A stretch of DNA of 64,000 nt, taken from an uncultured cyanobacterium. Its GTDB lineage: Bacteria > Cyanobacteriota > Cyanobacteriia > Cyanobacteriales > Cyanobacteriaceae. The notes beneath the pieces were generated by a model, which saw nothing but the letters and a program-made list of their open reading frames with translations, was not told where the DNA came from and did not search any database. The position numbers and the translations under genes are program-made. Positions within the stretch are counted from its first letter, which is position 1. Each line of letters opens with the position of its first letter. Below, one piece after another: positions 30,084-49,312 of this stretch. Location: contig CAVQBA010000004.1 of assembly GCA_963710605.1 (NCBI GenBank), positions 1,344,001 to 1,408,000 of the forward strand, read 5' to 3'.

Positions 30084-30539
30084 ATGACTACACTTCTAAC
30101 AATGAAAAAAAATCTTGTCCAACCCCATAAAGCCCACATTATAATCGTGGAAGATGATAAAGGTAAAAGAGAGATTTTATTGCGTAAAAGTGTTTATACG
30201 ATCGGTCGTTCACAACAATGTAATATTAAGATTAATTCAGCGTTCGTCTCCCGTTATCACGCAACTATCTTAAGAGAATTTGATTCTCAAGGCTATGTTA
30301 ATTACAAAATTGTCGATGGAGATGGGCAAGCAAAGTTTAGTGTTAATGGGATTTTAGTTAATGGTAAAAAAGTAGCTAATCAGCTTTTAAAACACGGAGA
30401 TAAAGTTGTTTTTGGACCACAAGTATCGATCGTTTATCAGCATTGTCAAAGAGATATATTCCCTTCTTTACCGCCAGATGATCCTTTTGATATTACTTTG
30501 ATTGATCCTGCTATGATGATTGGGGAATTAGATGATTAA
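30084..30539 (+). CDS. Stand-alone FHA-domain protein
   Basis: IGR, SRYHA, SVNG, LKHGD pThr-binding signature; acidic tail DDPFDITLID. Confidence 0.9.
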   Translation: MTTLLTMKKNLVQPHKAHIIIVEDDKGKREILLRKSVYTIGRSQQCNIKINSAFVSRYHATILREFDSQGYVNYKIVDGDGQAKFSVNGILVNGKKVANQLLKHGDKVVFGPQVSIVYQHCQRDIFPSLPPDDPFDITLIDPAMMIGELDD

Positions 30540-30683: not shown

Positions 30684-31863
30684 ATGATCGCATCGTCAGA
30701 CATTATTGCAAGTATTGCCGATGATTTAAATCGTTTACAAGAAAAAAAAAGAGCCAAAAAATTAGTTTTTTATATTAGTCAGAGATACTGGGAGTCTGAT
30801 TACTCTTTTGTTGAGAGTCATTCGTTTGAATCATTACTTAATAACATACATCAAACCAATCCGACTTTAGAAGATTTAAAAGCACTACTTTATCAAGCAG
30901 TTAATACTCTCAACAACAAAACTGTTTATACTAAAATTGCTCAATATATTTTCAAGCGGATGTCACCGTTGTATGTAGAAGTGGCTGAAGATAATCAAGG
31001 TCAAGGTAATGAATTAGAAACACAAATAATCGATCGTATTAGTGAAAATATACAATACCACGAAGAAGCATCGAGAATTAAAAAACTAATTTTTGCCGCT
31101 TGCAAACAATATTGGGAAAATGACAGTGATGTTATTGAAATGTATGATTTTAAGGAATTACTTTTAGAATTGTATGAGCTATATCCTAATCAGAAAAGAT
31201 TGAAAAAAGCCTTATACAAAATAGTTGCAAGTATCAATCGTCAAAATTTTTATTCTTTTATCGCCGATGCAATTATTAATGAGTTAACTTATCTTTATAA
31301 TCATGAAGTTAGAGAAATTCGAGCAGAAGAAGATAGCACTGCATTGATTAGAGCGAAAAGAAGAAAAAGCCCGATTTTAGATACAGATGAATCTACCTCA
31401 ATTAGAATTAATACCCAAAACCAGCAGGTTGATTTAGACGAAGATGATACACAAATTAGTATTAGCGAAGCAGGAGAAGAAAGTTTATCGATCAAGTTAG
31501 GTACAGATGTTATGCCTAGTACTGTACCTGAAGGACAAGTTATACCTTGGTTAAAAGTTGATAGTTTGTTTGACTTAAAGCAAGAGATAATGCAATATAC
31601 TAATCCTTTAAAAGCTAAAATTATCTTGTTTTATACTGTTTATCAAATTGATCCTTATGAACAACATTGGGCTGTAGTTAGAACTTGTAGTTTAGATGAT
31701 CTACTAATTAAACTTTTTCAACAATATGGCAAAAATATAGAAACGATTCGAAACTGAGCTATCTAAAATAGCTAATTATCAAATAGAAACTTTAGAAATA
31801 GAAGAAAACGCTCAAGTTGTTAGTGCTTTAACTGAGAGTATTAAACGTTTTTACAAAAAATAA
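30684..31863 (+). CDS. Hypothetical protein with three ~85-aa helical repeats, +1 frameshift near 31747
   Basis: Repeats RAKKLVFY..RYWESD / RIKKLIFA..QYWEND / KAKIILFY; removing a T in ACGATTCGAA extends the frame to TAA at 31861-31863. Confidence 0.75.
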
Positions 31864-31894: not shown

Positions 31895-32888
31895 ATGGAA
31901 ATTAATCAATTTATAGAAGAGTTTAATTCTGGGAAAGTTGATTTTACCCGAATAATGTTACCCGGAATCGATTTGACAGGAACTGATTTAATTGGTGTTA
32001 TATTTAGTGAAGCTAATTTACAAAAAGCTAACTTAACTTTTTGTTATTTAAATCGTGCCAAATTCGATCGAGCTAATCTAGTCGAAACAGATTTTAGTGG
32101 TACAAATCTTAACCAAGCTAGTTTTTGTAATGCCAACTTACATCGTTGTGACTTTCATGGTGCAATGTTACAAAGAAGTGATTTAAGAGGTGTTGATTTG
32201 ACTTTAGCAAATTTATTAGATGCTAATTTGATCGAAGTTGATTTGCGTTATGCTGATTCTTAGTAATGCTAATTTGAAAGGCTCTTGTTTAAGAGGTGCA
32301 AATATGCGTCGTGAAAAACGTTCTAAACCAACTAGCCTAAAAGGTACTAATTTAGACAAAGCAGATTTAAGAAATGCCGATCTTCAAGGTGCTGATTTAA
32401 GAGGGGCTAGTTTAGTCGGTGCTAATTTAGTTGAAGCAAATTTGCGTGGTGCTGATTTGACGGGTTCGGATTTGACTCAAGCCAATCTTAAAAATTCTTT
32501 TCTCACTGAAGTTCAATGTCAAGGTGCTAAATTTATTGGTGCTAATTTAGCAAATGCTAGGCTAGAAAGAACTATATTAACTGATGCTGATTTGACTCAA
32601 GCAAATTTAGAAAGTGCGACAATGCCTGATGCTAATTTAATTAGGGCTAATTTAATTCAAGCCAATCTTTCTTTTGCTCGTCTTAATCGTGCGGATTTAA
32701 CCCGTGCTAATCTTTACGGAGCAATTATGCGTAATACTTCTTTGTTAGAGGTATTTTTTGCTCGGACTAATTTAACTTCGGCTGATTTAACTAATGCTAA
32801 TTTAATTGGTGCTGACTTAACTAGTGCTAATCTGAGTAATGTTAATTTTGAAGGGGCGATTATGCCTGATGGGCAAGTTTATCACTAA
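31895..32888 (+). CDS. Pentapeptide-repeat protein, +1 frameshift near 32257
   Basis: A(D/N)Lxx repeats in both ORF halves; GCTGATTCTTAGT to GCTGATCTTAGT restores ADLSNANL. Confidence 0.88.
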
Positions 32889-32950
32889 ATTCATCTGAGG
32901 ATTAAATAGAGATTATCAAAGATAAAAGATGAAGGAGTAACTATTAACTA

Positions 32951-35119
32951 TCAAATATCGATCGTGTTTCGTTTACTGATAAAAGCTAATAATTCTTTTT
33001 CTGTTAATGATTTACTGATTAACCAGCCTTGAATAATATCACATTCTAAATATTCGAGCATTTGTCTTTGATTTTCAGTTTCTACTCCTTCAGCAACTAC
33101 AAGCATATTATAACTTTGAGCGATCGTAATAATGGCACTAACCAAAGCTTTGTCTTGAACATTAAAAGCTAAATCATCAACAAAAGATTTATCAATTTTG
33201 ATATATTTAAAAGGAAATTTTTTGAGATAACTAAACGAAGAATAACCTGTACCAAAATCATCAATTGAAAAACGAACTCCGATCAAAGATAATTCACTGA
33301 TTATTGATTCGGCAAGCTCAGAATTTTCGATTAAAAGACTTTCAGTTATCTCTAACTCTAAATATTGAGGTGGAAATTGAGTTTTATGCAAAATATCTTT
33401 GACAAGATCAACAAATTCACGAGTTTGAAATTGTTTCATCGAGACATTTACTGCCAAATTTAAAGCTGGATAACCTGAATCGAGCCATTTTTTGGCTTGA
33501 AAACAAGCTTTCTCTAATACCCAAGTACCGATAGGAATAATCAAACCAGTTTCTTCAGCGATCGGGATAAACTTATTTGGCGAAATAAAACCCATACCTG
33601 AACGATTCCACCTTAGTAAAACTTCAACTCCCATAATCTGATTTGTCTTCAGATTTAATTTAGGTTGAAAATTCAGCAATAATTCTTGATTATCAAGAGC
33701 AGAATAAAGACTATGTTCTAATTCAAATAATAATGCTTGTTCTGGATTAAGTTGAGTTACATAAAACTGATAATTATTTTTCCCCATTTGCTTAATTTTG
33801 GATAAAGCAATATCAGCAAATTTAACCAATTGTTTTTCTTCTAAACTATTATCAGGATAAATAGAGATACCGATACTACAACTAATATGAATTGTATGTT
33901 GAGCAATTAAGAATGGTTTTTTCAGACTATTTAAGATTCGATTAGCGATCGTTGCCGCCATTTTTGAACTATCATTTAATTTCAATAGATGCTCATCATT
34001 ATTATCAAGTAAATCTAATTCTAAAGGTGCAATTAAGACAAATTCATCTCCTCCCCAACGAGCAAGAAATGATTGTTTTGGAAGTACTGAAATTAGTCGA
34101 TAGGCAAAACATTCTAATAATTTATCTCCGAATGTATGACTTAAAGTATCATTAATATTTTTAAATCGATCGATATCAATAAACAAAACAGCTAAAGTTT
34201 TCTCAGCTTTTTTTCTTTCTTGTAAAGATTTTTGTAATTGATCGTAAAAGTAATTACGATTAGGAATACCAGTTAAAGAATCATGAAATGCTTGATATTG
34301 TAACTTTGCTTCTGTTTTTTTTCTCAGGGTAATATCAAAAATATAACTTCTAATTACTTTTTGTTTGGATAAATAATGAATATATTGCTCATAAAACTTA
34401 TCTTGATAATGAATCTCTCTAATTAGTAATTCACCGTTTGATTTACCACAATTAGCCGTCAAAGAAGATAGTAAACAATTGTCTTTTGATAAAGGTTGCG
34501 TTAATAATTGAGAAAAACATAATTTTGCCGAAGGATTAGAGTACGTAATATTGCCATTGAAATCAAACTCAATAATTGGATTAGGTGATAATTCAGGAAA
34601 AGAAGCTAAATGTTCTACATCTTGCGTTTTCAGTTTTTCAACTAGGTTTTCTTCCGAGATTATTAAAGTGTCTTGTATTCTTTCAGTTGTTTTGTTACTA
34701 TTTTGAGACGAATTAAGAGTAACTTTTGAGGATAAAACTGAATTTGATTTTAATGAATTAAGAGCATTTTTTTTGTATTTATAAATAGCTTGATTTTCTT
34801 GATCACCAAAATAGACTACATCTCCGTCTTCTAATTGATGGCTACTAATTTTTTGACCGTTGACTATTGTTCCATTTTGACTTGCTTGTTTTTCTAAATT
34901 ACCATCAATTAAAACATAAAAAGAATCTCCTGTGGGTAATACTTTTTTAATTAAAGTAGCATGATGTCTAGAAACAGCACTAGAACGTAATTTTATTTCA
35001 CAATCAACACTACGCCCGATCGTGTACATATGTTGCGTTAAAGTAATGGTTAGCTGTAATTGTGAATCATTTAGAAATAAAATTAATAAGTGATTGTTCT
35101 GATTAATTAGCGAATTCAT
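32951..35119 (-). CDS. FHA-PAS-GGDEF-EAL protein, both catalytic domains apparently intact
   Basis: FHA GR/SRHH/SQNG; DSLTG, IDIDRFK, RWGGDEF; EVL, DDFGTGYSS, KID, EGVE. Confidence 0.92.
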   Translation of the reverse strand: MNSLINQNNHLLILFLNDSQLQLTITLTQHMYTIGRSVDCEIKLRSSAVSRHHATLIKKVLPTGDSFYVLIDGNLEKQASQNGTIVNGQKISSHQLEDGDVVYFGDQENQAIYKYKKNALNSLKSNSVLSSKVTLNSSQNSNKTTERIQDTLIISEENLVEKLKTQDVEHLASFPELSPNPIIEFDFNGNITYSNPSAKLCFSQLLTQPLSKDNCLLSSLTANCGKSNGELLIREIHYQDKFYEQYIHYLSKQKVIRSYIFDITLRKKTEAKLQYQAFHDSLTGIPNRNYFYDQLQKSLQERKKAEKTLAVLFIDIDRFKNINDTLSHTFGDKLLECFAYRLISVLPKQSFLARWGGDEFVLIAPLELDLLDNNDEHLLKLNDSSKMAATIANRILNSLKKPFLIAQHTIHISCSIGISIYPDNSLEEKQLVKFADIALSKIKQMGKNNYQFYVTQLNPEQALLFELEHSLYSALDNQELLLNFQPKLNLKTNQIMGVEVLLRWNRSGMGFISPNKFIPIAEETGLIIPIGTWVLEKACFQAKKWLDSGYPALNLAVNVSMKQFQTREFVDLVKDILHKTQFPPQYLELEITESLLIENSELAESIISELSLIGVRFSIDDFGTGYSSFSYLKKFPFKYIKIDKSFVDDLAFNVQDKALVSAIITIAQSYNMLVVAEGVETENQRQMLEYLECDIIQGWLISKSLTEKELLAFISKRNTIDI

Positions 35120-35290
35120 TTGATCAATTGGTTGGCTAATGTCTGCTAAATAGAATCTAATTATTTTTGTTTTTTTAAAATTGTAGTATTGATAGTAGTT
35201 TAAATCATAGAAGTTTTCTAATCAAAACTAAATAACATAATTAAATTAGATCTAAAAATAAAAAATAAATTACTTTTATCTATTTTAATT

Positions 35291-37867
35291 TTAAAGACTA
35301 TAATCAGAATTAACCACAAAATTAATAATTTCATTTTCTGGTAAAGGAGTTGTCAACCAATTACCTTGTATTTGTGGGCATCCTAATTCTAAAAGTTCAT
35401 CTACCTCAATTTGTTTTTCTACCCCTTCAGCGATGACTCTTAATTGAAAACTTTGAGCAATACTGACAATGGCATTAACTAAAGCTTTATCTTGTGAGTT
35501 TGAACTAATCTCATTAATAACTGGACGATCGATTTTCACAGTCGAAAATTGGAATTGTTTTAAATAACCAAATGATGACACACCTGTACCAAAATCATCT
35601 AAAGCAATTCTGACACCTAAATTTTGAATCAGCTTTAAATTTTTTTGACTAAAAGGTAAATCTAAAGCAATCGTTTTTTCAGTTATTTCTAATTCTAATA
35701 AATGCGGATTGAGTTGTGTGTTTGTTAAAATATTTTGGAGCATATTAACAAAGTTAGGTTGTCGAAACTGAACCGCAGAGATGTTAATACAAATTGGTTG
35801 ATCGGTTAAATTGTTATTTTGCCATAATTTTCTTTTTTCACAAGCATTTTGAATTACCCACTCACCAATAGAGACAATCAAACCTGTTTCCTCAGCAAGA
35901 GGAATAAATTGCTCAGGGCTGATAATCCCTAACTCAGGATGTTGCCAACGAATAAGTGCCTCAATTCCTGTAATTTTATTTTCTTGAACTGCAACTTGTG
36001 GTTGATAAAATAAAGAAAACTCTTTTCTTTCTAAAGCATGAGCCAGAAGTTTTTCCATTCTCAACAAACGAGTTGTTTGCTCTTGTAATTTAGCTGAAGC
36101 AAACCGATAGTTGTTACTTCCTGCTTTTTGACTTTGAATTAGGGCATTTTGAGCTTCTTTAACCAAAATATCAATTGTTGTTTCTTGTTTATTTTGTAAA
36201 GCAATACCGATACTAACTTTAGTCTGTACTTTTATGTTATCAAGAAAAAAGGGTTGTTTAAGAGATTCAAGCATTCTGTCACAAACTCGTCCGACATCCT
36301 TACTATGTTTAATTTGAGGTAAAAGACAACTAAATTGAGATAATTCCCAATGACAAATAGTATCTCCTAAACGTAAACAAGCTCTTAAGCGTTTAGCGAA
36401 ACCTGCTAAAATTTTGGATTGAGCTATATAGTCTAAAACACCATCTTCTTGTTCTAAAACTTGTATTTCTAGAAATAATAAACAAAGAAACTCTTGATTA
36501 CGAAAACTATTAGCGATCGCTAATTTTAGTTGTTCAATTAATAATTGACGATTAGGTAATCCTGTTTGTAAATCATAAAATCCTTCTTCTTGGATATAAG
36601 TTTCTTGGTAATTGTCTTTTTGTCGAGGACGAACAATAATTGAAAGCAAACTTTGATTACCCGAATTAATATAACCAATACTCGATTCAAGTTCCAGAAT
36701 TAATTTATTTTGACATTGATAGCCAAATTGTTTTAAAACATAACTATTACGTGCAGAAGCTGATTCCACGATCGAATTTATTTCTTGATCTAATCTTTCA
36801 GGTGTTAGATTAATTAAATCATAGAACTTAAGCGATCGTATTTGCTTAACCGTATAACCTAATAAATTACTCAACGCTAAATTAGTTTGTGTAATAGTTT
36901 TAGTTTTAGTATCGACAACTAAAATAGCCTCTTGAGTTTGATTAAGTAAATAATCATATTTACTATCACTTTGATCTAAAATATTGTGATTAGAAGGTTG
37001 AGTTTGATTTTTCGCTTGTTCAAAAACATAACTTCTAATTAATTTTTGTTCCGATAAATAATAAATATATTGTTCAAAAACCGTATTTTTAAACTTAACT
37101 TCTCTAAAAAACAATTTGCGAGAACGACCATTAGTCTTAGTGTTTTTGACTAAACTAAATAACAAAGGATGATTTAGTGAAGTATTACTTTTTTGTAACT
37201 CAGGAAAAAATTTGATCGCACTAGGATTAAGATAAGTTATTTTACCTTGCCATTCTAATTCAATAATCGGGTTTGGAGCTTGTTCAGGAAAAGACGCTAG
37301 TTTTTCTAAAGATGAATTACCACTACTAAATTCACTAGAAGATGATAATTCCCAATTTGGTTCAGAAACAACGATCGAATCTGTTGAATTGTAAACAGTC
37401 TTTTTCGCCGTATTTTTAGGTTTAATCGTATCTTCTTCCGAATCAGGTGTTTTTTGAAAATCTCCTGATTGTAACAAAGCAATATCTTCAACTTTGTCTA
37501 AAATATAATAACTAGCTTGTATCTCAAATCCAAAACGGATTATATCTTCGTGTTTTAATTCCTGAACTAAACACCTTTTATCGTTAATATAAATACCATT
37601 AGTACTACGATTACCTTGCAAATCACCATCTAGTAACCAATAAGAATAAGAACGATTTTGAGTGTCAGTACGACGTAATAAAGTACCATGAAAGCGAGAT
37701 ACTTTCTTCGATTCTAAAATAATTTTGTTACGACGGTCTCTACCAAGAGAATAATTGGCTTCTTCTAAAACAATTGTTTTACGAGAATTTTCGTCTTCGA
37801 TTATCAAAACATGATTAAGCGAATTATAGTTTCCGTATAAAGTTGATTTGAAATAGTCGCTGTCCAT
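35291..37867 (-). CDS. FHA-PAS-PAS-degenerate GGDEF-EAL phosphodiesterase
   Basis: FHA GR/SRFH/STNG; GGDEF replaced by ELSQF with RLGD I-site; EAL, DDFGTG, KID, EGVE intact. Confidence 0.9.
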   Translation of the reverse strand: MDSDYFKSTLYGNYNSLNHVLIIEDENSRKTIVLEEANYSLGRDRRNKIILESKKVSRFHGTLLRRTDTQNRSYSYWLLDGDLQGNRSTNGIYINDKRCLVQELKHEDIIRFGFEIQASYYILDKVEDIALLQSGDFQKTPDSEEDTIKPKNTAKKTVYNSTDSIVVSEPNWELSSSSEFSSGNSSLEKLASFPEQAPNPIIELEWQGKITYLNPSAIKFFPELQKSNTSLNHPLLFSLVKNTKTNGRSRKLFFREVKFKNTVFEQYIYYLSEQKLIRSYVFEQAKNQTQPSNHNILDQSDSKYDYLLNQTQEAILVVDTKTKTITQTNLALSNLLGYTVKQIRSLKFYDLINLTPERLDQEINSIVESASARNSYVLKQFGYQCQNKLILELESSIGYINSGNQSLLSIIVRPRQKDNYQETYIQEEGFYDLQTGLPNRQLLIEQLKLAIANSFRNQEFLCLLFLEIQVLEQEDGVLDYIAQSKILAGFAKRLRACLRLGDTICHWELSQFSCLLPQIKHSKDVGRVCDRMLESLKQPFFLDNIKVQTKVSIGIALQNKQETTIDILVKEAQNALIQSQKAGSNNYRFASAKLQEQTTRLLRMEKLLAHALERKEFSLFYQPQVAVQENKITGIEALIRWQHPELGIISPEQFIPLAEETGLIVSIGEWVIQNACEKRKLWQNNNLTDQPICINISAVQFRQPNFVNMLQNILTNTQLNPHLLELEITEKTIALDLPFSQKNLKLIQNLGVRIALDDFGTGVSSFGYLKQFQFSTVKIDRPVINEISSNSQDKALVNAIVSIAQSFQLRVIAEGVEKQIEVDELLELGCPQIQGNWLTTPLPENEIINFVVNSDYSL

Positions 37868-38115
37868 AAAACTTCAAAAATAAAATAACCTTACTTATTA
37901 TCTTGTGCGGGTCAAAAAAAACTGTTTATATCACAATGGTAAAACACCATTATCACCAATAAGCCAAATTAGTTATATTTTTTGGTAAATTAGTTAATAA
38001 TACTTGATTAATTTAACTTTAAACAAAACTAATCTTGTTTTATCAATAACTAAGTTAAATATTTTGAATAATAATTGACCAAAATAAAAATGATTTGATT
38101 ATATACAGGAAATAA

Positions 38116-40596
38116 TTAATCAAAAGTCTGATTATTTGATTTTTGTAAAAAAATACTCATTTCTTTACTAGCTAATGGACGACTAAATAAATTACCTTGT
38201 ATTTGCGTACATCCTAACCGTCTTAAAATATCCATCTGTTCTACTTTCTCAACTCCGACAGCAATCAAACGAATATTGTATCCTTCACATAAAGTAGCAA
38301 TACTACTGACTAAAGTTTGAATTTTAGGATCTATATCAACTTTTCCTGTTATATTCGGACTAATTTTAACTGTATCAAAAGCAACTTTTTGTAAATGAGT
38401 TAAAGCACAGTTACCTGAACCAAAACTATCTAGACATAGTTTAACTTTTAATGCCGATAACTGTTCTAAAGTTTTGTATGCCATATCGGTATTTTTAGCA
38501 AAACAAGTTTCCGTAAATTCTAATTCTAATAGCTCTGGGGGTAAACCTGTTTGTTCTAGTATTTTGTTAACTGAAGCCACAAAATTTGGTTGAGAAAACT
38601 GTCTAGTAGAAATATTAATCCCGATCGGAAAGTAGTTATTTTGGTCTTGAAACCATTTCTGCATTTGTAATGTTGCTGTTTGTAAAATCCAAATACCTAA
38701 AGGAAGCATAAAATCAGATTCTTCAGTTAAACGCAAAAAATGTTTGGGTGTCACTTTACCTAATTCTGGATGATTCCATCGTAATAAAGCTTCTAAGCCA
38801 GTAAAACCACGGGTACTACTATCTATTTGTGGCTGATAGCAAAGAAAAAATTGTTGTTCTCTAAAAGCGTTACTAATTAAAGTTTCTAGTTTTAATAAAC
38901 TGGCAGTTTTGGGCGTAAGACTAAATCCTGTTACACCATACTTATGATGGTTATTACCTGCTTTACTTTGCTCTAAAGAATATAAACTACTTTTAATGAG
39001 TAATGAGCTATTTTCTGCATCAATAGGATAAATAAATACAGCCATATGAGTTTTTAACTCAACTTGACTTTGTTTAGATTGTCTTTCTAAATATGGAGTT
39101 AGGGTAGCAAATATTTTTTTAGCAACTTTAGCTGTATCTTTTGGCCCAGTTATACGAGTGAACAAAATCATAAATTGATTATTTGTCCATCGAGCTAACA
39201 AATTTTCTTTTTGCAGACAAGATTGAATTATTTGTTTGATGTTTTGAATCAATTCTTGATTATTTTTTAATTCTTCACTCTGGTTAAAATGTTGTAAATT
39301 GTCTATTTCGATCGCAATCAAACCCATGAGATAATGAAAATTTTGAGCTTTAGCTATGGCTATTTCTAACTGCTCTTGAAATAATTTTTGGTTAGGTAGA
39401 TTAGTTTCTTGATCATGATACATCAAATAATCTTTAAAATCTTGTTGTTCATAAATCTGAACATTACGAACTACAAAACAGAAAATATCTTTATTTTGAT
39501 AACTCGTCAAACTTATGCTTGTTTCTAGGTTAATCAAAGAAGCATCCGAACAACGAAATAAATATTTACCTACATAATCTTCTTTAGTTTCTAATACCCG
39601 ATTTAAATCATGATTAATACTAGTCAAATCGCTAGCTAAAACATTATAGACACTCAAACTAGTAACTTGTGATTGAGAATATCCCAAAATTTCAAGTAAA
39701 GTTTCATTCGCTTCAATTATTCTTCTATTACTAGCATAAGCTAAAAAAATACCTTCAGATGTCTGTCTAATAATTGCTTGATAACGAGCTTGTGCTTCTC
39801 TTAATTGAGCCTCTACTTGTTTTCTTTTCGTAAAATCAAAAATGTAGCTTCTAATGACTTTTCTTTCTGAAAGATAATGAACATATTGCTCAAAAATTTC
39901 TGTACCTATTTTGATTTCTCTTAAAAAGAGATTACCTTGTCTATTACTATCTTCTGATAACAACCCGATTAATATAGGATGTTTTAATTTATCTTCATAA
40001 ATAGTATCAAACTTTAAACTAGCCGCCGGATTAACATAAGTTAGATTACCATCCCAATCTAACTCAATAATCGGATTAGGACTTAATTCGGGAAATGAGG
40101 CTAAACGGATTAATTCTTGTTGTTCTTCAGTATTTTTGTCTTCATCTGCTTTAGTAATAAGTGTATCAGTAGATTGACTATTTAAAGTTACACGAGAAGC
40201 CGAAATTTTTTCTAATCCTTCAGGATTAAATAAATCAATTCCTGAATCTGTACTAATTATGTAATAACTTGCTTTAGCTTCATTCGCAAATAAAATTGTG
40301 TCGCCGTGTTTTAAATCATGAGTTGAGTATGATTTGCCATTAATTGACAATCCATTAGTACTTCTGTTTCCTTTTAAATCACCATCAATAATCTGATATG
40401 AAAATTCCCCTTGTGTTTCTTCTTCTGTTTGACGAATCAAACTAGCGTGAGTGCGAGAAACTTGATAGTCATAAATCACAATAGGATTGTTAGAGTCTCG
40501 TCCAATTGTATAATTACTTTCTTCTAAAGAAATTATTCTTCTTCCTTTTCGATCTTCTATAACGAATATATGACGAAATTCTTGCACTTGATTCAT
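38116..40596 (-). CDS. FHA-PAS-PAS-GGDEF-EAL protein, both catalytic domains degenerate
   Basis: FHA GR/SRTH/STNG; GGDEF replaced by TNNQF; EAL present but DSFGSG, KIS and VGVE. Confidence 0.88.
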   Translation of the reverse strand: MNQVQEFRHIFVIEDRKGRRIISLEESNYTIGRDSNNPIVIYDYQVSRTHASLIRQTEEETQGEFSYQIIDGDLKGNRSTNGLSINGKSYSTHDLKHGDTILFANEAKASYYIISTDSGIDLFNPEGLEKISASRVTLNSQSTDTLITKADEDKNTEEQQELIRLASFPELSPNPIIELDWDGNLTYVNPAASLKFDTIYEDKLKHPILIGLLSEDSNRQGNLFLREIKIGTEIFEQYVHYLSERKVIRSYIFDFTKRKQVEAQLREAQARYQAIIRQTSEGIFLAYASNRRIIEANETLLEILGYSQSQVTSLSVYNVLASDLTSINHDLNRVLETKEDYVGKYLFRCSDASLINLETSISLTSYQNKDIFCFVVRNVQIYEQQDFKDYLMYHDQETNLPNQKLFQEQLEIAIAKAQNFHYLMGLIAIEIDNLQHFNQSEELKNNQELIQNIKQIIQSCLQKENLLARWTNNQFMILFTRITGPKDTAKVAKKIFATLTPYLERQSKQSQVELKTHMAVFIYPIDAENSSLLIKSSLYSLEQSKAGNNHHKYGVTGFSLTPKTASLLKLETLISNAFREQQFFLCYQPQIDSSTRGFTGLEALLRWNHPELGKVTPKHFLRLTEESDFMLPLGIWILQTATLQMQKWFQDQNNYFPIGINISTRQFSQPNFVASVNKILEQTGLPPELLELEFTETCFAKNTDMAYKTLEQLSALKVKLCLDSFGSGNCALTHLQKVAFDTVKISPNITGKVDIDPKIQTLVSSIATLCEGYNIRLIAVGVEKVEQMDILRRLGCTQIQGNLFSRPLASKEMSIFLQKSNNQTFD

Positions 40597-40752
40597 CTAT
40601 ATAACACCCAAAGTAATTCATTCAAAGTAAGAAATTCTAATATCCAAACTGATATTAATAATTAATATTCATTATAATACTTGGTCAGAACAAACTTTGA
40701 TACTTAATTTGAGTATAATAAAGCAGAAAAATGAAAAAGATTAGGGTCAAGA

Positions 40753-42291
40753 ATGACTGGTTTAGCTTTATTAAGTGTTTCTGATAAAACTGGTATTGTC
40801 GAGTTAGCTAAGGTACTAGTAACAGAATTTAATTTTCAGATTGTGAGTAGTGGCGGTACGGCAAAAACGTTACAAAATGCGGGTATTCCTGTCATGAAAG
40901 TAGGTGAGTACACAGGTTCTCCAGAGATTTTAGACGGCAGAGTAAAAACGCTACACCCTCGTATCCATGGAGGTATATTGGCTCGATTAGAATTAGATTC
41001 TCATCAACAAGATTTGAGTGATAATGATATTACTCCTTTTGATTTAGTGGTGGTAAATCTTTATCCTTTTGAGAAAACAGTCGCCAATCCTGATTGTACT
41101 TTAGAAGAAGCGATCGAGAAAATTGATATCGGTGGTCCAACGATGGTACGTGCGAGTGCAAAAAATTACGCTCATGTTACTATATTAACAAACCCTAACA
41201 ATTACTCAGACTATTTAACTCAGTTACGAAATAATGAGGGTAAAACCTCGATCGAGTTTCGTCAAAAAATGTCAGCACAAGCATTTGCGATGACGGCAAT
41301 TTATGATCAAGCCATTTGTCGTTATTTTGCCCAGACAAACCCTGATACATCCGATTATTATGGTATCGGAGGGAAAAAGATTGCGACTTTACGTTATGGC
41401 GAAAACCCTCATCAACAAGCAAGTTGGTATCAAAATGGTAACATAGCCACAGGTTGGACTTCGGCTGAGCAGTTACAAGGAAAAGAACTTAGTTATAATA
41501 ATTTAGTTGATTTAGAAGCGGCTAGAAGAATCGTTTGTGAATTTCCCGCAGACGAACCAGCGGCGGTGGTAATTAAACATACTAACCCTTGTGGTATCGC
41601 TGTGGGTAAAACGTTGATTGAAGCCTATACAAAGGCTTATGAAGCAGATTCGATGTCGGCATTCGGTGGTATTGTTGCTTTAAATCGATCGATCGATGTA
41701 CCGACAGCAGAGGCGATGAGTAAAATCTTTTTAGAATGTATTATTGCTCCTGATTGCAGTGAGGAAGCTAAGGCTGTATTGGCGAAAAAATCGAAGTTAC
41801 GGGTATTGATTTTGCCTGATTTACATTCTGCTACTCAAGATAACATTAAAGCGATCGCTGGTGGCTTTTTAGTCCAAGGAAATGATACTCAAATAGAGTT
41901 ACCTGAAAGTTGGGATATTGTGACTGAGAAAAAACCGACAGACACTGAATTAGCTGAGTTGTTATTTGCCTGGAAAACCGTTAAACACGTTAAATCAAAT
42001 GCGATCGCTATTACTAAAAATCGGACGACTTTAGGTATTGGTGCAGGACAAATGAATCGTGTCGGGGCGGTAAAAATTGCTCTAGCACAAGCAGGAGAGA
42101 AAGCTACGGGTGCATTTTTAGCTAGTGATGCGTTTTTTCCTTTTGATGATTCTGTACGTACTGCAGCCGTTGCTGGTATTACTGCTATCATTCAACCAGG
42201 TGGTTCGATTAGGGATAAAGATTCGATTAAAGCGGCTAATGAATTAGGTTTAGTGATGGTATTTACCAAAGTGCGTCACTTTTTACACTAA
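40753..42291 (+). CDS. purH: Bifunctional AICAR transformylase/IMP cyclohydrolase
   Basis: ALLSVSDKTG, GRVKTLHP, IDIGGP, LRYGENPHQ, KHTNPCG, ASDAFFPF, RHFLH. Confidence 0.97.
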   Translation: MTGLALLSVSDKTGIVELAKVLVTEFNFQIVSSGGTAKTLQNAGIPVMKVGEYTGSPEILDGRVKTLHPRIHGGILARLELDSHQQDLSDNDITPFDLVVVNLYPFEKTVANPDCTLEEAIEKIDIGGPTMVRASAKNYAHVTILTNPNNYSDYLTQLRNNEGKTSIEFRQKMSAQAFAMTAIYDQAICRYFAQTNPDTSDYYGIGGKKIATLRYGENPHQQASWYQNGNIATGWTSAEQLQGKELSYNNLVDLEAARRIVCEFPADEPAAVVIKHTNPCGIAVGKTLIEAYTKAYEADSMSAFGGIVALNRSIDVPTAEAMSKIFLECIIAPDCSEEAKAVLAKKSKLRVLILPDLHSATQDNIKAIAGGFLVQGNDTQIELPESWDIVTEKKPTDTELAELLFAWKTVKHVKSNAIAITKNRTTLGIGAGQMNRVGAVKIALAQAGEKATGAFLASDAFFPFDDSVRTAAVAGITAIIQPGGSIRDKDSIKAANELGLVMVFTKVRHFLH

Positions 42292-42448: not shown

Positions 42449-42721
42449 ATGAAAAAAAATTTTTATTTTGAGTTTATTGATGAATCTTCTCAAAACGCAA
42501 TTTCATTTGAGTATGATAATGATATAGATGAAGAAATGGAAGTGATAATAGAAAACCGAACACCTATTTTATACGCTAATCGCCAAGGATTATTAGCTTT
42601 AGCTAAAATTTTAATTAAAATAGCAATTTGTAATTATAAAGATGGATTTCATCTTCATTTAAGGAAAGATTTTGATGCAGATAAACCAGAGACAATGCTT
42701 TGTATATTGAAAGATAAGTAA
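42449..42721 (+). CDS. Putative polymorphic-toxin immunity protein (Imm32-like)
   Basis: Acidic 90 aa with ANRQGLLALAKILI..A....GFHLHL pattern; family recalled, not searched. Confidence 0.55.
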   Translation: MKKNFYFEFIDESSQNAISFEYDNDIDEEMEVIIENRTPILYANRQGLLALAKILIKIAICNYKDGFHLHLRKDFDADKPETMLCILKDK

Positions 42722-43187: not shown

Positions 43188-44555
43188 TTAATAGCTTTGA
43201 GTGAAATATAAATCAAGAGATAAATCAAATTCTTTAGTAGCAATTGACGAATTATTAATATTAATCGATCGGACAAATTCTCGTAAATAAAACCGTTTTT
43301 CTTGCTCGGATAAATCGTACCAAAATTGTTCTAAAGATAAAGTTTTAGCGATCGTTTCTAAATTGTTTGGAGGTAACCCGACTAACTTTGTTTTCAACTG
43401 CGATACTTGTGTTTGTAACTGATAATTTCTTAATTGTGCTGTTTGCTCATCTAATATTTGTGTTTTCACTAAATTATTCAAACTATCAATAATATCTATT
43501 TTTTGCTTGATTTGCTGTTGAATACCTTGCTTTATTAATTCAATATCAGGAATTTGATTATTAGTTTCAATTAGTTTAAATTGCTGACAAATACTAGTTA
43601 TAACAGCGTTAAGCACTTGCTCATAGTCGATCGATTTACAACTTTTTTCTTGCTGACAATTAGTCGAAGTTAAGTATAAATATTTTTGCTTTTTATATTT
43701 TTGTGTTACCGAAGTAATTTTAAAATTAGACTGGCATTTACTACATTTAACCAAACCAGCTAAACAATAATTAGCTGAAGCACTACGAGGTTTAACTCGG
43801 CTATGACTTTTTAAAATTCGTTTAATTTGAGCCGCTTCTTCCCGACTAATAATCGGGGTATGAGTATCACAAATAATTTGCTGATTTTTGTAACGTAAAT
43901 CTCCTTGATAAACAGGATTAGTTAACCAATAATTAGCAGTAGAAACCACAATTTTTTTTTTATATTTAGTTGCCAAAAAACGGACACAATCTCTTACTGA
44001 AGCATATAACAAAAAACGCTCAAAAAAAGCACGTGCGATCGGTGCAGTTGCTTTATCAATTAGATAAGATTCTTTTCCCCTAACATAACCATAAGGTGCT
44101 TTACCCGGTGGTGGTAAAACTTTAAGACGATTTTGAGCATGAGATATTTTGAGCTTTCTTCGCTGATAAATTTGCTCAATATCTAACCATAATTGATTGT
44201 ATTCTGCTTTGGTTTGCTCATCAGTAATTGCCTTAAATTTACTAGTGCTATAGTCTTGATTAAGAGCAATTATTTCAACGTTTAACTGCTCAATAATTTT
44301 AATATTTTCAATGACTTGTGCTAACTTATTTCCTAACTCAAATAAATTGAAGATTAATAAATAATCTATCGGTTGTGTTTGAATATCATTAATTAATTGA
44401 TGTAGCTGTTGCCTATCACCAATATCTTGATATATCTTATCTATTTCCCAACCCCAAATAGAAGCATCTAACACTTTATCTAAAATAGGCTCGACATAAG
44501 TATAAGCAACGATAGAGAATTGAGAATTGAGAGTTGAGAATTGAGAATTATTCAC
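43188..44555 (-). CDS. Large serine recombinase-family protein lacking the catalytic Ser motif
   Basis: GKAPYGY, WLTNPVYQG, HTPIIS, LAGLVKCSKC Zn ribbon, coiled coil; YTYVEP where YxRxS is expected. Confidence 0.8.
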   Translation of the reverse strand: MNNSQFSTLNSQFSIVAYTYVEPILDKVLDASIWGWEIDKIYQDIGDRQQLHQLINDIQTQPIDYLLIFNLFELGNKLAQVIENIKIIEQLNVEIIALNQDYSTSKFKAITDEQTKAEYNQLWLDIEQIYQRRKLKISHAQNRLKVLPPPGKAPYGYVRGKESYLIDKATAPIARAFFERFLLYASVRDCVRFLATKYKKKIVVSTANYWLTNPVYQGDLRYKNQQIICDTHTPIISREEAAQIKRILKSHSRVKPRSASANYCLAGLVKCSKCQSNFKITSVTQKYKKQKYLYLTSTNCQQEKSCKSIDYEQVLNAVITSICQQFKLIETNNQIPDIELIKQGIQQQIKQKIDIIDSLNNLVKTQILDEQTAQLRNYQLQTQVSQLKTKLVGLPPNNLETIAKTLSLEQFWYDLSEQEKRFYLREFVRSININNSSIATKEFDLSLDLYFTQSY

Positions 44556-49249: not shown

Positions 49250-49312
49250 GACGCGTTCCTTCAGAAGATTTAATTACTTCTTACTTCCGTCTGTTTAAAA
49301 CAGATGAACGTT
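49250..49312 (-). ncRNA. Class I glutamine riboswitch (glnA motif)
   Basis: CGUUC-A-UCUGUU(UUA)AACAGA-C-GGAAGUA-AGAAG..CUUCU-GAAG-GAACG-CG: P1 CGUUC/GAACG, P2, and P3 with AGUA/GAA E-loop. Confidence 0.88.

Follow-up and report, generated by a model that had tools for sequence, protein, structure and literature searches.

A conserved tandem array of three FHA-GGDEF-EAL paralogues with divided catalytic motifs in an uncultured cyanobacterium

Three tandem genes, each encoding FHA, GGDEF and EAL domains, lie at 32951..40596 on the minus strand of a 64,000-nucleotide window from an uncultured cyanobacterium (assembly GCA_963710605.1, contig CAVQBA010000004.1, positions 1,344,001 to 1,408,000). 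The window is the whole stretch of DNA that was analysed. It has 33% G+C and lies on contig C4 of a 3.93-Mb, 7-contig genome. In transcription order the genes are named C (P0003, at 38116), B (P0002, at 35291) and A (P0001, at 32951). The locus is probably (about 60%) an anciently triplicated and conserved tandem C-B-A array of cytoplasmic cyclic di-GMP (c-di-GMP) proteins of the cyanobacterial FHA-(PAS)-GGDEF-EAL family, working by the following mechanism. A would be the catalytic member, either bifunctional or phosphodiesterase-dominant like Anabaena CdgSH. B would be a phosphodiesterase whose dead GGDEF domain is kept as a c-di-GMP-binding I-site regulator. C would be non-catalytic and would bind c-di-GMP or serve as an adaptor, by means of its EAL-like domain and also, in most relatives, of an I-site. 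The input would be Ser/Thr phosphorylation, with a Hanks-type kinase modifying a conserved Thr in the linker behind the FHA domain. The phospho-Thr would be read by the FHA domain of the same or a sister protein, as is the phosphothreonine tail of DgcB, and this reading would alter oligomeric state and hence enzyme output. PAS-like and PAS domains would supply a second input. This proposal builds on the arrangement of domains, on an array that is old and conserved, on a lineage-wide division of motifs, on purifying selection acting on the apparently dead domains, and on conservation of the FHA pocket and the linker Thr.

The list of open reading frames for the window holds exactly three minus-strand, co-oriented FHA/GGDEF/EAL frames in this interval. 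The original prediction had described them as co-oriented paralogues with an N-terminal FHA domain, and the frame list, Pfam and a three-way alignment agree. A check with domain profiles bore this out, with FHA, GGDEF and EAL over curated Pfam cut-offs in A, B and C and far beyond chance. The FHA domain (PF00498) scores 56.5 bits in A, 49.0 in B and 50.1 in C against a cut-off of 20.7 (E 3.9e-15, 8.4e-13 and 3.7e-13). No NCBIfam equivalog was found for A, B or C; matches to the DibA, DosP and Tlr1612 families all fell under cut-off.

Domain coordinates were computed from Pfam residue ranges, and all are on the minus strand. Gene C (38116..40596, 826 aa) is the first of the array. It encodes an FHA domain that retains the pocket residues (residues 29-103, 40288..40512), a disordered linker, a PAS-like module (residues ~164-262, 39811..40107), a canonical PAS domain (residues ~270-380, 39457..39789; Pfam PAS_8 1.3e-11, PAS 6.7e-9, PAS_9 8.6e-8), a degenerate GGDEF domain (residues 393-547, 38956..39420; E 1.2e-21) and a degenerate EAL domain (residues 574-807, 38176..38877; E 1.6e-60). 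An AlphaFold2 model of full-length C has a mean predicted local distance difference test (pLDDT) score of 79.7. Gene B (35291..37867, 858 aa) encodes FHA (residues 39-113), linker, PAS-like, PAS (303-420), GGDEF (431-586, 36110..36577; E 7e-23) and EAL (608-840, 35348..36046; E 2.5e-67) domains. Its GGDEF domain is degenerate and carries a conserved RxxD I-site, and its EAL domain is predicted to be active. Gene A (32951..35119, 722 aa) is the last of the array and encodes an FHA domain (residues 32-105), a linker with Thr151, a PAS-like module, a predicted active diguanylate cyclase GGDEF domain without I-site (residues 277-449, 33773..34291; E 1.4e-40) and an EAL domain predicted to be an active phosphodiesterase (residues 470-703, 33011..33712; E 1.4e-70). 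The spacers measure 248 bp between C and B (37868..38115) and 171 bp between B and A (35120..35290), and neither holds a terminator-like minus-strand site in a scan of 32500-41000. Promoter-like sites in that scan were fewer than in shuffled sequence, the AT-rich DNA making it uninformative. A search for sequencing runs covering 32951-40752 listed none.

The three proteins differ in their catalytic motifs. In the three-way alignment, no EAL signature residue of A is missing, and its GGDEF domain retains both the GG[DE]EF signature and the metal- and guanine-binding residues upstream of it; RxxD is absent. In B the GGDEF signature is degenerate and the upstream metal- and guanine-binding residues are lost. 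An RxxD precedes the signature position by exactly five residues, and the EAL signature of B is complete. In C both the signature and RxxD are gone. The EAL domain of C retains the EAL Glu and Arg, the Asn, ExxE, the Lys and the Gln, has lost the second loop-6 Asp and carries Val at the position of the catalytic-base Glu. These replacements were confirmed by residue-by-residue alignment to a solved active EAL domain. Every motif string quoted in the original prediction was found in the three-way alignment.

This division was followed in a 46-sequence alignment of 13 A, 17 B and 16 C proteins, comprising all uninterrupted orthologues of loci L001-L019 plus the window. All cyclase and phosphodiesterase motifs are intact in 13/13 A orthologues, and RxxD, which cyclase activity does not require, is absent from all 13. 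B has lost the signature in 17/17 orthologues, with 14 different five-residue strings in its place, and keeps an R-x-G-D I-site in 17/17; its EAL signature is complete in 16/17, with loop 6 variable. None of the 16 C proteins has the signature, and RxxD is present in all of them except the window's own (15/16). The catalytic-base Glu and the second loop-6 Asp are both absent from C in 15/16, the exception (L013) coming from outside the family, and full EAL degeneracy of C is seen only in the window's family. A C orthologue from Gomphosphaeria still has an intact signature and EAL domain, so the loss was stepwise along the lineage. The scoring rule of PMC12900916 takes EAL domains lacking the catalytic-base Glu to be inactive. 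Since this Glu is replaced, C is not to be filed as a phosphodiesterase. A division into an enzyme (A), an I-site-bearing phosphodiesterase (B) and a non-catalytic member (C) is a reasonable reading of these motifs.

Loss of catalytic motifs might also mean that B and C are decaying relics of duplication, without function of their own and on the way to becoming pseudogenes. Single genomes do carry a stop codon (in A of G013 and in C of G019) or a large in-frame deletion in C. Most genomes nevertheless have full-length open frames, and RxxD of B is invariant while the adjoining signature drifts. Ratios of nonsynonymous to synonymous substitution (dN/dS) were estimated by the Nei-Gojobori method on same-genus sequences of seven loci, with 12-21 usable pairs per domain; dS was 0.7-1.4, near saturation, so the ratios are rough. 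They were 0.05 for FHA, 0.04 for PAS-like, 0.16 for GGDEF and 0.084 for EAL in C, and 0.07, 0.07, 0.11 and 0.16 in B, all below the 0.17-0.24 of the four folded domains of intact A. As estimated from these sequences, dN/dS excludes neutral decay of B and C and places the apparently dead domains under purifying selection. Decay is hardly credible as an explanation, and the graded loss from A through B to C that had been predicted proved to be conserved across orthologues and under selection.

The deletion form of C is 547 aa long and lacks residues 235-510. It was seen in a sister species (L020:4617-6260, genome G001) and as a separate entry (P0042). The deletion spans the end of the PAS-like module, the PAS domain and the degenerate GGDEF domain; FHA, linker Thr and degenerate EAL domain remain. 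This form and the absence of RxxD from the window's C together suggest that the GGDEF-like domain of C is dispensable in the genus.

Pairwise identity among A, B and C is only 33-36%, and the triplication is therefore old rather than recent; orthologues are 44-66% identical. A quick maximum-likelihood tree of 49 family members placed A, B and C in three separate clades with starred support within the family. B and C were sister clades with a Shimodaira-Hasegawa-like approximate likelihood ratio (SH-aLRT) of 91, the deep nodes being unstarred. A search with C over 40 relatives found full-length relatives in 40/41 genomes, the window's included. A scan for related loci gave no matches with P0003 alone and 34 loci with an alignment query. 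C orthologues within the family are 53-66% identical, the named loci in this range being from Geminocystis and Cyanobacterium species, and the window's organism belongs with this group.

Twenty loci were fetched, their open reading frames were classified by BLAST, and 19 other genomes of the same family were compared. C-B-A is adjacent and uninterrupted in 10/19 (G002, G003, G006, G007, G008, G010, G011, G015, G017 and G018). Four more have the array in part: one member is split by a stop in G013 and in G019, G016 has C and B followed by the start of an FHA domain just before the contig end, and the array is fragmentary in G001, a genome of the window's genus that is 67% complete. The recurrence of this order in relatives answers the synteny survey proposed with the prediction; the triplet is conserved. 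In three genomes of one genus (G004, G009 and G012) C and B occupy separate loci, and an FHA-less GGDEF-EAL gene adjoins C. The contigs of G005 are too short to judge. Outside the family, C-B-A was found in another family of the order (L013) and in a Prochloraceae metagenome-assembled genome (L029), and Gomphosphaeria (L028) has a C-B pair. No other gene is conserved beside the array in the loci compared, purH being adjacent in 4/20.

In the complete genome G014, an in-frame gene (L018:8546-12268) encodes a 1240-aa protein that joins C residues 1-673 to A residues 149-720, and B is missing from the locus. It may be a natural Rosetta-stone fusion, or the frame may have survived an accidental deletion.

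These data bear on a further explanation, in which the proteins are three independent sensors, each with its own signal, its own PAS and FHA inputs and its own target, clustered by tandem duplication and perhaps sharing a promoter, and neither form a heteromer nor divide labour in one pathway. C and B lie ~0.4 Mb apart in G004 and G009, the array has no further conserved neighbour, and three more family members are encoded elsewhere in the window's genome. Arrays of the Crocosphaera group keep nearly all motifs in all three proteins, and an array alone thus does not amount to an enzyme plus pseudo-enzymes. Set against this are the C-B-A order, kept across genera (orthologues only 51-66% identical) and in another family, the complementary and conserved pattern of degeneracy, and the natural C::A fusion. 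A common reader domain together with the linker Thr would also permit cross-recognition. Independent sensors are a serious but somewhat unlikely alternative to the proposed mechanism. Because every member has an FHA reader and, some dozens of residues downstream in a disordered stretch, a conserved linker Thr, a kinase could join the paralogues head-to-tether. Kinase-driven binding of this kind might create a switchable A/B/C hetero-oligomer in which C and B would sense c-di-GMP without catalysing and set the balance of cyclase and phosphodiesterase in A, with built-in feedback; this extension of the proposed mechanism is speculative and, on present evidence, unlikely. If true, the stepwise motif loss and the C::A fusion would be evolutionary traces of a kinase-assembled complex.

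The phospho-input proposed for the array draws on the FHA pocket and the linker. Pocket residues (Gly-Arg, Ser-Arg-x-His and Asn-Gly) are present in 46/46 A, B and C sequences, and PMC6733907 describes what the equivalent residues of DgcB do in phosphothreonine binding. The linker between FHA domain and PAS-like module is poorly conserved, and residues 125-167 of C have pLDDT <50 in the full-length model. Within it one Thr, followed by two aliphatic residues, is found in 44/46 sequences. One A orthologue has Ile instead, and the window's B has Ser. Of the 122 N-termini in a redundant set, 121 have Thr at this column. In the window's C it is Thr145 (codon 40162..40164), a candidate phospho-acceptor and FHA ligand.

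A matching motif is phosphorylated in vivo in Synechocystis. The phosphopeptide of Slr1103 listed in Supplementary Table 4 of PMC4379935 starts at Ser146-Thr147, followed by two Ile. One event places the phosphosite on Ser (localisation 0.98) and the other on Thr (0.97) (PMC4379935). For the Thr event all four ratios of nitrogen-starved to control cells (M/L and H/L) lay between 2 and 5, and for the Ser event three of four did, the remaining ratio being 0.34 in experiment 2 (PMC4379935). The same dataset contains phospho-Thr424 of Slr1102 and phospho-Ser60 of Slr1103 (PMC4379935). The homologue P0236 from Synechocystis sp. LKSZ1 has four residues identical to the Slr1103 motif at 146-149, between its FHA domain and PAS-like module, and their alignment to the conserved Thr column is off by at most one residue. 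The window's genome has 18 Pkinase, 2 PP2C_2 and 3 SpoIIE matches. Complex prediction for the FHA domain of C (residues 1-120) with its own unphosphorylated linker (124-170) scored 0.00 twice, no controls being run, and speaks neither for nor against binding. Phospho-gating of the array proteins is plausible and indirectly supported by the in vivo data from Synechocystis. The original prediction had presented the array as a link between Ser/Thr kinase signalling and c-di-GMP. The pocket conservation and the match of the linker Thr to the Slr1103 phosphomotif favour such an input; as a novelty the link was overstated, being already known from DgcB and CdgSH. Taken as a whole, the original interpretation is partly supported.

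Alternatively, the FHA domains could act independently of phosphorylation, by constitutive dimerisation or docking, with the linker Thr serving a structural or docking role and regulation running through the PAS-type domains only. According to the discussion in PMC6733907, dimerisation of the DgcB FHA domains is constitutive, and they can bind the tail in its unphosphorylated state as well. No kinase is linked to the locus, and the window's B has Ser at the conserved column. Retention of every phosphothreonine-pocket residue in all 46 sequences speaks against this alternative. Since the Thr is in disordered sequence, it is unlikely to have a structural role. The matching Synechocystis motif carries phosphate in vivo, with a response to nitrogen starvation in the dataset of PMC4379935. 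A phosphorylation-independent role is quite improbable.

Several points weigh against the proposed array and its phospho-input. The window's B has Ser at the linker column, and a Thr stands two residues upstream of it. In C the residue at +3 from the linker Thr is not hydrophobic, unlike the DgcB ligand, in which Thr is followed by Ser-Ile-Val and the +3 residue sits in a pocket (PMC6733907). The Slr1103 site was placed on the linker motif through a homologue and residue numbering, and its localisation is split between Ser and Thr, so that the match is a probable one. The window contains no gene for a kinase or phosphatase, and in the loci compared none is conserved next to the array. Adjacency of the genes is not obligatory, as the split loci of G004, G009 and G012 and the fusion without B in G014 demonstrate, and the dN/dS ratios carry the near-saturation noted above. 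The window's C lacks the RxxD that its orthologues keep. The A protein has a 15-residue insertion straight after the signature strand, absent in 10/12 other A orthologues and shorter in two, and its predicted cyclase activity is not assured. Motif calls can also fail, since cyclase activity is reported for GNDEF and GGDQF domains in PMC12900916. One-to-one orthology of A, B and C with Synechocystis Slr1102-1104, as judged from the quick tree, is not established.

The original prediction had named two sequence blocks shared by the three proteins and had labelled all of them FHA-PAS-GGDEF-EAL. Both blocks are indeed in all three, as the two ends of one divergent PAS-like domain. B and C have a second, canonical PAS domain detected by Pfam in these two only; A has the PAS-like module alone. 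This module of ~100 residues is found between the FHA domain and the domain that follows. In 18/21 members it is matched by Pfam PAS_8 and PAS, though only below threshold (best E 6.4e-4), and a profile of the module found nothing better than E 0.11 among PDB sequences. An AlphaFold2 model from a 21-row alignment has pLDDT 78.4 and the order two strands, helices, three strands. Foldseek gave 34 matches to the model at E<=0.001, and among the matches listed all are PAS, LOV or PYP. As modelled, the shared module has a five-stranded PAS fold.

A profile search over longer proteins found the module in 2375 of 8000 scored proteins at E<=1e-5, and it is a widespread sensor module barely detected by the Pfam PAS models. 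Top matches are SpoIIE/PP2C phosphatases of ~575 aa and histidine kinases with two or three tandem copies. In other organisms the module occurs in two or three copies in PP2C/SpoIIE serine phosphatases and histidine kinases (P0125, P0135 and P0179). In the window's own genome it is confined to five FHA-GGDEF proteins.

The closest known system is in Synechocystis PCC 6803, in which Slr1102, Slr1103 and Slr1104 are given as FHA-PAS-PAS-GGDEF*-EAL, FHA-X-GGDEF*-EAL and FHA-X-GGDEF-EAL in Table 1 of PMC10124867. The same table has a fourth gene elsewhere, Sll1895, with FHA-PAS-GGDEF*-EAL (PMC10124867). According to this review, most proteins of the table, Slr1102-1104 included, are without known function (PMC10124867). 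As in the window, the Synechocystis genes are three consecutive genes on one strand, each encoding FHA-...-GGDEF-EAL. Their N-termini belong to the same family of FHA plus PAS-like module, and the Ser-Thr motif of the Slr1103 linker is the one phosphorylated in vivo. They differ in length, with 853, 706 and 613 aa against 826, 858 and 722 aa in the window. The Synechocystis lengths match the trios of the Crocosphaera group, of ~855, 700 and 610 aa, whose catalytic motifs are almost all intact (seven loci, L036, L038, L039, L040, L042, L045 and L053), and not those of the window's array. In the quick tree, with its deep nodes unstarred, B alone pairs with the ~610-aa class (SH-aLRT 94); the ~700-aa class is not the sister group of A. 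By these comparisons the window's trio is related to the Slr1102-1104 array but differently composed. The array is a new example, with a distinctive pattern of degeneracy, of a kind already catalogued and functionally uncharacterised. Literature searches found PMC10124867 as the sole paper naming slr1102-1104, no functional work on Sll1895 among three papers mentioning that protein and no paper on Geminocystis with GGDEF, and the term FHA-GGDEF-EAL returned only the Microcystis paper PMC7063779, in which one FHA-GGDEF-EAL protein is found in 23/24 genomes.

The structure of the FHA-GGDEF enzyme DgcB of Bdellovibrio bacteriovorus has been solved, and a phosphothreonine tail activates it, as described in PMC6733907. 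Like the array proteins, it has an FHA domain with the consensus pocket that controls a c-di-GMP enzyme, and an RxxD I-site (PMC6733907). Its ligand is likewise a phosphothreonine in a disordered part of its own chain, followed by aliphatic residues (PMC6733907). DgcB differs in having neither PAS nor EAL domain, in being a single gene and in coming from a proteobacterial predator. Its phosphothreonine lies in an N-terminal tail, whereas the candidate Thr of the array is C-terminal to the FHA domain. In DgcB the FHA domain is joined directly to GGDEF, and in the array proteins PAS-like, PAS and EAL domains come between or after. The array proteins are not members of the DgcB type, though they may work in a DgcB-like way. 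CdgSH of Anabaena sp. PCC 7120 (FHA-PAS-GAF-GGDEF-EAL) was bifunctional in vitro with phosphodiesterase dominant, as reported in PMC8682488. It is cyanobacterial, bears an FHA domain and has all catalytic residues, and from what is described of it is the best functional model for A. It differs in its GAF domain and in being a single gene.

Dead GGDEF or EAL domains are retained as c-di-GMP binders in I-site receptors of the PelD and PopA type, in LapD and in FimX. The GGDEF domain of B and the EAL domain of C look like such modules and may bind c-di-GMP. In sequence the EAL domain of C is much nearer to the active EAL domains of MucR and MorA (E ~1e-45) than to that of FimX (7.5e-11), and NCBIfam LapD scores of the array proteins are far below cut-off. 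SesA, SesB and SesC of Thermosynechococcus cooperate. Of these three cyanobacterial c-di-GMP proteins, one is a cyclase, one a phosphodiesterase whose GGDEF is degenerate, and one is bifunctional (architectures in Table 2 of PMC10124867). Their inputs are light-sensing GAF domains, not FHA, and the genes are not paralogues in tandem.

For many c-di-GMP proteins of cyanobacteria no input is known. We know of no cyanobacterial FHA-GGDEF-EAL protein with a tested phospho-input. FHA recurs as a partner domain (legend to Fig. 1 of PMC3747582). The array provides a natural dissection, in which three old paralogues with a common reader and a conserved, probably phosphorylated tether would have both activities, only a phosphodiesterase with I-site, or neither. 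Both the link from FHA to c-di-GMP (DgcB and CdgSH) and a tandem FHA-GGDEF-EAL trio (Slr1102-1104) were known already, and the expected gain is mechanistic detail within a known theme rather than a new principle.

The three further family members in the window's genome differ in motif content. An 843-aa protein (C4:992514-995045) has all motifs intact, and a 714-aa protein (C4:381424-383568) has both domains very degenerate. A 609-aa FHA-GGDEF protein (C7:339102-340931) has the PAS-like module and no EAL domain; its gene lies ~4-6 kb from two Hanks-type kinase genes (C7:333168-335397).

Within the window, a 151-aa FHA-only protein (P0004) is encoded at 30084-30539 on the plus strand, and its FHA domain is 36-46% identical to those of the trio. 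The adjoining plus-strand gene at 30684-31757 (P0005) encodes 357 aa with internal repeats of ~80 residues and no Pfam match. P0004 is conserved in 19/19 genomes of the family and P0005 in 17/19, and the two are mutually adjacent only in the window's genome (G000), G017 and G019. Both were considered as conserved partners of the array and rejected: in G017 they lie 170 kb off, and in G004, G006 and G010 their coordinates bear no relation to it. The only Rfam match in the window is a glutamine riboswitch (RF01739) at 49250-49312 on the minus strand, with 57.7 bits against a gathering score of 35. Just past purH are a 90-aa protein with a match to the immunity protein Imm32 (42449-42721, plus strand) and a 455-aa large serine recombinase (43188-44555, minus strand), which may be a small leftover of a mobile element or conflict system next to the array.

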